Source: a candidate division CPR2 bacterium GW2011_GWC2_39_10 (GTDB lineage: Bacteria > Patescibacteriota > CPR2). Taken from it: DNA of 64,000 bases. Position numbers and translations under genes: made by a program. The notes under the pieces were generated by a model. The model saw nothing but the letters and a program-made list of their open reading frames with translations, made no database searches and had not been told where the DNA came from. Location: NCBI GenBank assembly GCA_000993275.1, contig LBVV01000009.1:2897-66896 (forward strand). The letters are read 5' to 3'. Positions 45,531-46,921 of the stretch are shown here, one piece after another; within the stretch, counting starts at the first letter, position 1; each line of letters opens with the position of its first letter.

Positions 45531-46921
45531 ATGGCTGAGATAGCTGAGATAGAAGAACAACAGCAAATAATTCGCAAAATTGGCCGTGTGGTGGGTATTC
45601 ACGGGGCGGTGGTTGACGTTCATTTCCCCGGTGAACTCCCGGAAATCCATAATGCCATGATTATAAAAGAAGGAAATGAAGAACTTGTCTTAGAGGTTTT
45701 TGAGCATCAGCCCAATCGAACTGTTAGGGCGCTTGCCATGGGCCACTCTACCGGGCTTAAAGTAGGCTTAGAAGTTGAGGATACGGGAGGCGTCCTTCTT
45801 GTTCCGGTTGGTCCGGAACTCTTGGGCAGAATGGTCAATATTTTCGGAAAACCCTTAGATGACGGGGAAGAGGTAAAAACCGAAACAAAGCATCCAATTT
45901 ATGTTCCAAGCCCCGATTTTACCGGCGTTAAAAACACTAATGAAATAATTGAGACCGGCATTAAAGCTTTAGACTTTTTAACCCCCTTTATTAAAGGCGG
46001 CAAAACAGGCTTCTTTGGCGGTGCGGGTGTTGGTAAAACACAGCTGGTTACCGAAATTATCCACAATACTACCATGAAACATGGTAACAACTCGGTTTTT
46101 TGCGGTGTTGGAGAACGTACCAGGGAAGGTAATGAGCTTTATTTGTCTCTAAGAGATACTAATGTTTTGCCTAATGTGTCTATAGTGCTGGGTCAGATGA
46201 ATGAATCCCCTGCAATAAGGTTTAGAACTCCCTTAACGGCTATTACTATAGCTGAGTACCTAAGAGACTGGAAGAAAAACGATATCCTTCTTTTTATAGA
46301 CAATATTTTTCGATTTATCCAGGCCGGAATGCAGAAACCGGTTATCAGTCAACCTTGGCTTCAGAAATTGGCGAGGTTCAAGAAAGAATTGTCTCCACCG
46401 ATTCCGGTTCTATTACTTCCGTTCAGGCAATATACGTTCCTGCAGATGACTTTTCCGACCCCGCCATCCAGGCTATCTTCTCCCATCTGGATTCTGTTGT
46501 GGTTCTTTCGCGTAAAATTGCTCAGCAAAAAATTTATCCGGCCATGGACGCATTGGCTTCCAGTTCTACTATAGACGAAGAGGTGTTGGGAGAAAAACAT
46601 TATAAAACATTAAGGTCTTGCTTAAAGCTGTTGGAGCGCTACAGGTCGCTTCAAAACATTATTGCAATTCTAGGCGAGGATGAGCTTTCGGAAGCAGAAA
46701 AAGTGACCGTTTCAAGGTCGAAAAAAGTTTTAAAATTTTTAACCCAACCATTTTTTACGGCAGAAAAATTTACCAATGTGCCCGGCGTTTATGTTACTAA
46801 GGACGAGACGGTAGAAGGTATAGATAGGATACTTAAAGGGCAATATGACGAGTATACCGATGAACCTTTTTATATGGCGGGCAATATAGAAAGCGTAGAG
46901 GACAAATGGCGGAAGAAGTAG
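45531..46921 (+). pseudogene. atpD: F-type ATPase subunit beta, split by a short frameshifting deletion at about 46322-46340
   Basis: Frame 0 reads through GGAGVGKT and [14 protein letters not shown]. Homology resumes in another frame as [47 protein letters not shown]... The conserved SEVSALL segment between the two parts is missing. Confidence 0.85.

Follow-up and report, generated by a model that had tools for sequence, protein, structure and literature searches.

Does a broken atpD gene in a CPR2 bacterium (Patescibacteria) record the loss of an ATP synthase subunit, or an error in the published sequence? The question arises in a 64,000-nt stretch of contig LBVV01000009.1 (assembly GCA_000993275.1), the whole of which is referred to here as the window. 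The F-type ATPase cluster of the window lies on the plus strand and encodes, by Pfam assignment, a c-like domain, a b-like protein, delta/OSCP, alpha, gamma, beta and epsilon; the scan around this operon covered positions 37263-47262. Instead of a single open reading frame (ORF) of about 460-480 aa for beta, the atpD region consists of one ORF of 347 aa and another of 188 aa.

Anatomy of the atpD junction

The gene starts at 45531 on the plus strand and is made up of two parts that meet at an abrupt junction:

45531 to 46331, plus strand: atpD 5ʹ part, codons 1-267 (MAEIAE...FIQAGM), matching sibling contigs at 99.9-100% identity as far as base 46331
46331 to 46332, plus strand: atpD junction, where 31 nt (GAAGTGTCTACGGTGCTTGGGCGAATACCGT) are absent from the window, as DNA alignments to relatives and to eight same-population contigs show
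46332 to 46921, plus strand: atpD 3ʹ part, displaced by one frame; CA, then GAA (46334), reading ETGYQSTL...WRKK and a stop

In frame 0, the reading homologous to beta subunits ends with ...FIQAGM at 46331. The Gly codon occupies 46326-46328, as the first-pass annotation of this DNA had it, and is followed by ATG (Met) at 46329-46331 and then by unrelated residues; this Met is the first residue of the lineage motif QAG-MEVSTVLGRIPS-ETGYQ. The frame of 46322 then carries the homology to beta as far as the stop codon at 46919-46921, and the 188-aa ORF, initiated at TTG and extending from 46355 to 46921, spans most of the C-terminal part. While the first-pass annotation had named the correct frame for this continuation, it also let the homology begin at 46322, and the true restart is the GAA at 46334. 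The residues GRNA that it had counted as beta homology are an out-of-frame reading of CAG GCC GGA ATG plus CA. Nor do the two homologous readings overlap on ggccgga, as had been proposed: frame 0 is homologous to 46331, and the other frame only from 46334. The frame break itself is real in the window, as is evident from the reading of the frames and from the joined protein, which matches solved F1 beta chains (PDB 2qe7_D, E = 4e-145) with a 9-residue gap exactly at the join.

At the junction, the window reads CCGGAATG followed directly by CAGAAACC, clean and with no Ns. DNA alignment to two relatives opens one clean 31-nt gap in the window, between the ATG and CAGAAACC, and the missing bases encode EVSTVLGRIP and the first base of a Ser codon. 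A loss of about 28 nt had been estimated earlier; alignment to the intact allele sets it at 31 nt. No microhomology or direct repeat was found at the junction in the DNA alignments, and nowhere in the window does the 31-mer, or any 12-16-mer taken from it, occur as a possible partner in a repeat collapse.

The P-loop (GGAGVGKT, with K169) and the Walker-B Asp (D257) are both present in the 5ʹ part. Bovine beta has its P-loop Lys at residue 162, its catalytic base at Glu188 and its Walker-B Asp at residue 256 (PMC4415626). Because the bovine base lies 26 residues past the P-loop Lys, the catalytic base of the window protein is E195 (K169 + 26), in the GER motif; this Glu, the same in every aligned sequence, precedes the break and is retained. 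The catalytic base had earlier been placed at the Glu of GSEVS, and the lesion was described as removing the catalytic-Glu loop, neither of which is correct. What is incomplete in the window, and present in all eight same-population contigs, is the conserved post-Walker-B segment QAG-xEVSxxLGRxPS-xxGYQ. The missing residues correspond to about residues 267-276 of the bovine chain, counted from Asp256, and are important, but not as the catalytic base. It had been allowed that a proper alignment might recover a SEVSALL-type segment in some frame; in the alignment made here, EVSTVLGRIP is absent from the window in any reading.

The same site in sibling contigs and relatives

Sequences identical to the gamma and epsilon proteins of the window are found on many public aquifer groundwater metagenome contigs (PRJNA268031-type samples), and eight distinct contigs span the atpD site (L008, L009, L010, L011, L014, L016, L023 and L024). 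These sibling contigs were produced by four pipelines (ANAN16 scaffolds, MEGAHIT k141, Logan and JGI) and are 99-100% identical to the window. In this comparison with strain variants from groundwater metagenomes, a check that the first-pass annotation had suggested, all eight contigs carry the extra 31 nt and with it an intact 473-aa beta, and the deleted junction occurs in none of them. A ninth contig (Logan SRR29904083), represented by its gene call only, has a 473-aa gene at the same position.

When the 31 nt are added to the window, a 473-aa protein results that has no differences from that of L009 and two from that of L008. The five nucleotide differences between the repaired window atpD and L009 are all synonymous, and 3ʹ of the junction the window is 100% identical to L008, L009 and L010 over 4927 nt. 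The earlier remark that the downstream part is still well conserved is borne out, the repaired protein being 100% identical to an intact sibling protein. In the 189 nt before the junction L008 carries the window alleles, and beyond the junction it is identical to the window, yet the 31-nt block is present in it.

The interrupted form was also sought more widely. A 36-mer across the junction had no matches in collections of genome contigs and metagenome contigs, and a 40-mer from the right flank of the junction had none in the genome-contig collection. Exact-product look-ups in a protein collection, made for the 347-aa ORF, the 267-aa 5ʹ part, the 195-aa 3ʹ part and the 188-aa TTG ORF, returned no record. 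The closest homologues are CPR2 beta subunits, and among the matches listed all 120 of 120 are full length (436-542 aa). Nine aligned homologues, at 76-91% identity, all keep QAG-MEVS(T/I)VLGRIPS-ETGYQ, and no beta split or frameshifted at this site was found among the relatives listed or aligned. A literature search on CPR2 and ATP synthase yielded nothing relevant.

The repaired beta resembles the AtpD of canonical bacterial F1Fo enzymes (e.g., PDB 2qe7_D) in being full-length and in having the P-loop, the GER Glu and the Walker-B Asp, and it has the same three Pfam domains as its relatives. It differs in the CPR2 lineage motif G-MEVS, which stands against G-SEVS or G-TEVS in most bacteria, and is otherwise without difference. 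Judged from these sequence comparisons, the real gene of the organism is that of an ordinary intact 473-aa F1 beta subunit, and the absence of the EVSTVLGRIP segment is a property of the sequence record, not of the organism.

Comparison of the window with the sibling contigs also defines a region of polymorphism within atpD:

45863 to 46232, plus strand: strain-level SNP cluster

Over the 4.9 kb to the left of the junction, all differences between the window and its siblings fall within this cluster, and small contigs from other assemblies end or begin at 46155, 46176, 46316 and 46397 (15-176 nt from the atpD site, not exactly on the junction). The junction lies just downstream of the cluster and in no repeat or hairpin, unlike four other lesions of the window. 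At least four atpD haplotypes co-occur in the samples (that of the window and those of L008, L009 and L010). The haplotype differences are packed into 370 nt, with several kb on both sides identical, and this stretch may be a recombination tract between strains.

Further lesions in the window

A search for other lesions, in which window positions 1-57215 (57 kb) were tiled with sibling contigs, found at least seven beyond atpD, consisting of six clean omissions (25-47 nt) and one chimeric patch:

1818 to 1819, plus strand: 25-nt omission at the 3ʹ end of one copy of repeat D2; an NCBI sibling (L033) omits 30 nt there
6304 to 6305, plus strand: 39-nt omission, likewise at the 3ʹ end of a D2 copy; the last base of the NCBI contig LBXQ01000055.1 (L033) falls exactly at 6304
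about 25385 to 25386, plus strand: 42-nt omission inside repeat D1, in the 3ʹ arm of a hairpin
31547 to 31548, plus strand: 28-nt omission inside the second D1 copy
40744 to 40834, plus strand: 91-nt chimeric patch, standing in place of 130-144 nt of the sibling contigs
41392 to 41393, plus strand: second 31-nt omission (TGGAAAGAAAAACGTTGCTATAGATGCTATC), which breaks the 665-aa Big_1::c-like gene; an N-gap in L008 starts at exactly 41392
51258 to 51259, plus strand: 47-nt omission, which cuts a 470-aa surface protein to 380 aa

Both affected proteins are intact in the siblings; in the window, the 665-aa Big_1::c-like gene is spread over three ORFs. The chimeric patch with its immediate flanks (window 40723-40842) matches L040 at 97.5% identity; this contig comes from an unrelated organism of 55% GC, the window having a GC content of 38%, and the counterpart of the stretch in L040 lies inside a coherent 226-aa ORF. 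Three positions coincide exactly with contig ends, N-gaps or alignment breaks of siblings, namely 6304 (L033), 41392 (L008) and 31548 (L037, an NCBI sibling in which collinear alignment halts at 31400 and restarts exactly at 31548, with a misplaced 59-nt piece between). In sibling ANAN16 scaffolds, placeholders of 10-15 Ns stand in for 18-88 nt of actual sequence, which matches the omissions of the window in size range. An artefact of fixed k-mer size was considered for the two omissions of exactly 31 nt, and this cause was rejected since the other omissions measure 25, 28, 39, 42 and 47 nt.

The published sibling genome to which L037 belongs (NCBI GCA_000995565.1, contig LBXQ01000060.1) has local errors of its own. 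Relative to window 29379-29537, about 150 nt are missing from a pseudouridine synthase gene (259 vs 309 aa), and relative to window 31400-31548, the 59-nt piece has been spliced in from the D1 copy near 51594-51652.

Assemblers based on de Bruijn graphs classically break at repeats and hairpins, and in four of the omissions it is a 3ʹ arm of the structured repeat D1 or D2 that has been lost. D2 is present as two intergenic copies of about 125 nt that are 99% identical (window 1721-1818 and 6205-6304; intact in L030:12205-12352). On the plus strand it folds into a long, closed multi-stem structure (-58.3 kcal/mol, z = -5.3), and both window copies lack the 3ʹ closing arm because of the assembly omissions. 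D1 has three intergenic copies (window 25286-25386, 31449-31547 and a diverged one at 51520-51618; intact in L035:2344-2492), each with two hairpins, and two of the three are 100% identical over 99 nt. Contigs from the assemblies of several pipelines start inside D1. No Rfam match was found for either repeat.

The Big_1::c-like gene belongs to an operon that is unusual in other respects. Its alpha, beta, gamma, delta and epsilon subunits look intact, and the sole ATP-synt_C (PF00137) match in the operon is the last ~70 aa of this 662-665-aa protein, which combines a signal sequence and Big_1/Invasin_D3 Ig-like domains with a C-terminal c-subunit hairpin. The fusion is kept in four CPR2 lineages from independent studies (window 39845-41758, intact in L009:994-2991; L002:3856-5850; L041:4332-6320; L042:3987-5975). 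Where c subunits have their ion-binding Glu (E56 in Bacillus PS3, IGVALVEA), all four lineages have Leu (IGLxLGL). The annotations of L002, L041 and L042, the three lineages that have a gene table, contain no a-subunit gene (ATP-synt_A) in the 10 kb to each side of atpD. Taken from gene content and domain assignments, the c-like fusion and the lack of an annotated a subunit hint at a non-canonical membrane sector. The alpha subunit (window 42836-44590; 584 aa) has a Lys-rich N-terminal extension of about 60 aa and a Lys/Glu-rich C-terminal tail, and alpha subunits of sister lineages measure 552-657 aa. Cell-surface genes flank the ATPase operon in all lineages compared (window 37263-39498 and 57149-57706; L042:1-462), forming a conserved neighborhood with a WxLIP_PGBD/fn3_5 protein and a dockerin-domain protein upstream and a cohesin-like protein downstream.

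Origin of the split gene

The split atpD is best explained as an artefact of the source assembly rather than as biology, with a probability of about 0.9. Two assembled pieces of one CPR2 population genome would have been joined between 46331 and 46332 without the intervening 31 nt, whether through a local assembly error, through a scaffold gap that was closed up, or through an N placeholder that was later removed. The absence of Ns at the lesion sites of the window suggests that placeholders were removed, or closed without filling. As to why the break should fall in atpD, the SNP cluster at 45863-46232 and the nearby contig ends lead us to infer that strain-level polymorphism fragments the assembly graph here; since the site lies in no repeat or hairpin, the case for this cause is circumstantial.

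Errors of this kind are familiar from short-read metagenome-assembled genomes (MAGs). Local assembly errors are prominent in IDBA-UD metagenome assemblies, in which scaffold gaps cause problems as well (Chen et al. 2020, PMC7111523). The errors described there are like those of the window in several respects: at repeats, hairpins or strain-variable sites the consensus lacks short stretches or has them wrong, gene calls are truncated or frameshifted, many sites are affected per genome, and foreign chimeric sequence occurs occasionally. The density of lesions is not the same, however, with at least 8 in the 57 kb of the window compared with 13 in a 1.13-Mb CPR genome (PMC7111523), and the window differs from the gap cases described in having no Ns at its lesion sites.

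The first-pass annotation had judged the lesion to be either very recent or artefactual, and of these two options the intact sibling contigs strongly support the latter and disfavor a recent real lesion. The real lesion would be a 31-nt deletion allele carried by a sub-population, with atpD as a very recent pseudogene caught by the source assembly. The clean junction speaks for such an allele, as does the flanking SNP haplotype, which no sibling matches over the whole gene, so that a distinct strain is represented. However, the deletion is absent from all eight sibling contigs, its product matches no public gene call, and L008 has the block on the same local haplotype. Signs of decay are absent as well, since repair yields the intact protein unchanged and the SNPs relative to L009 are all synonymous, and a junction with zero microhomology is unusual for a spontaneous deletion. 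Moreover, the same genome would need at least six further independent deletions of 25-47 nt and a foreign 91-nt patch, while being otherwise 99.9-100% identical to its siblings, and with several of these deletions falling exactly at contig ends or N-gaps of other assemblies. A real deletion allele is therefore very unlikely. If it were true, there would be a minor strain with an F1 beta lacking the invariant EVSTVLGRIP and truncated by a frameshift, and an F-type ATPase just lost in a lineage whose ATPase operon was already unusual.

Two further readings are far less probable still. The one originally put forward starts from a pair of ggccgga direct repeats, between which slippage or a collapse in the assembler would have removed about 28 nt. 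It drew on the ggccgga at 46322-46328 and on the out-of-frame Gly-Arg that mimics the GR of the beta motif. However, GGCCGGA occurs just once in the intact allele, where Gly-Arg is encoded by GGG CGA, so no ggccgga direct repeat exists; the 31-nt block starts 3 nt past ggccgga, and the DNA alignment with this allele refutes slippage or collapse between repeats. It is just as improbable that the gene functions as it stands, by programmed frameshifting or as a naturally split beta made of two polypeptides. The TTG-initiated ORF at 46355-46921 would cover most of the C-terminal part in such an arrangement, but ten invariant core residues (EVSTVLGRIP) are missing in any reading, and no sibling or relative is split or frameshifted here, a state that is unique to one sequence.

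An assembly artefact thus remains the preferred reading of the split atpD, and the main value of the finding is in quality control. Apparent lesions in highly conserved MAG genes can be resolved without reads, by means of independent assemblies of the same population, and for the frameshifted or truncated genes of the window (atpD, the Big_1::c-like gene and the 470-aa surface protein) sibling assemblies should be consulted first. For the biology of CPR2 bacteria, it follows that this record is unsuitable for inferring ATP synthase loss or pseudogenization.
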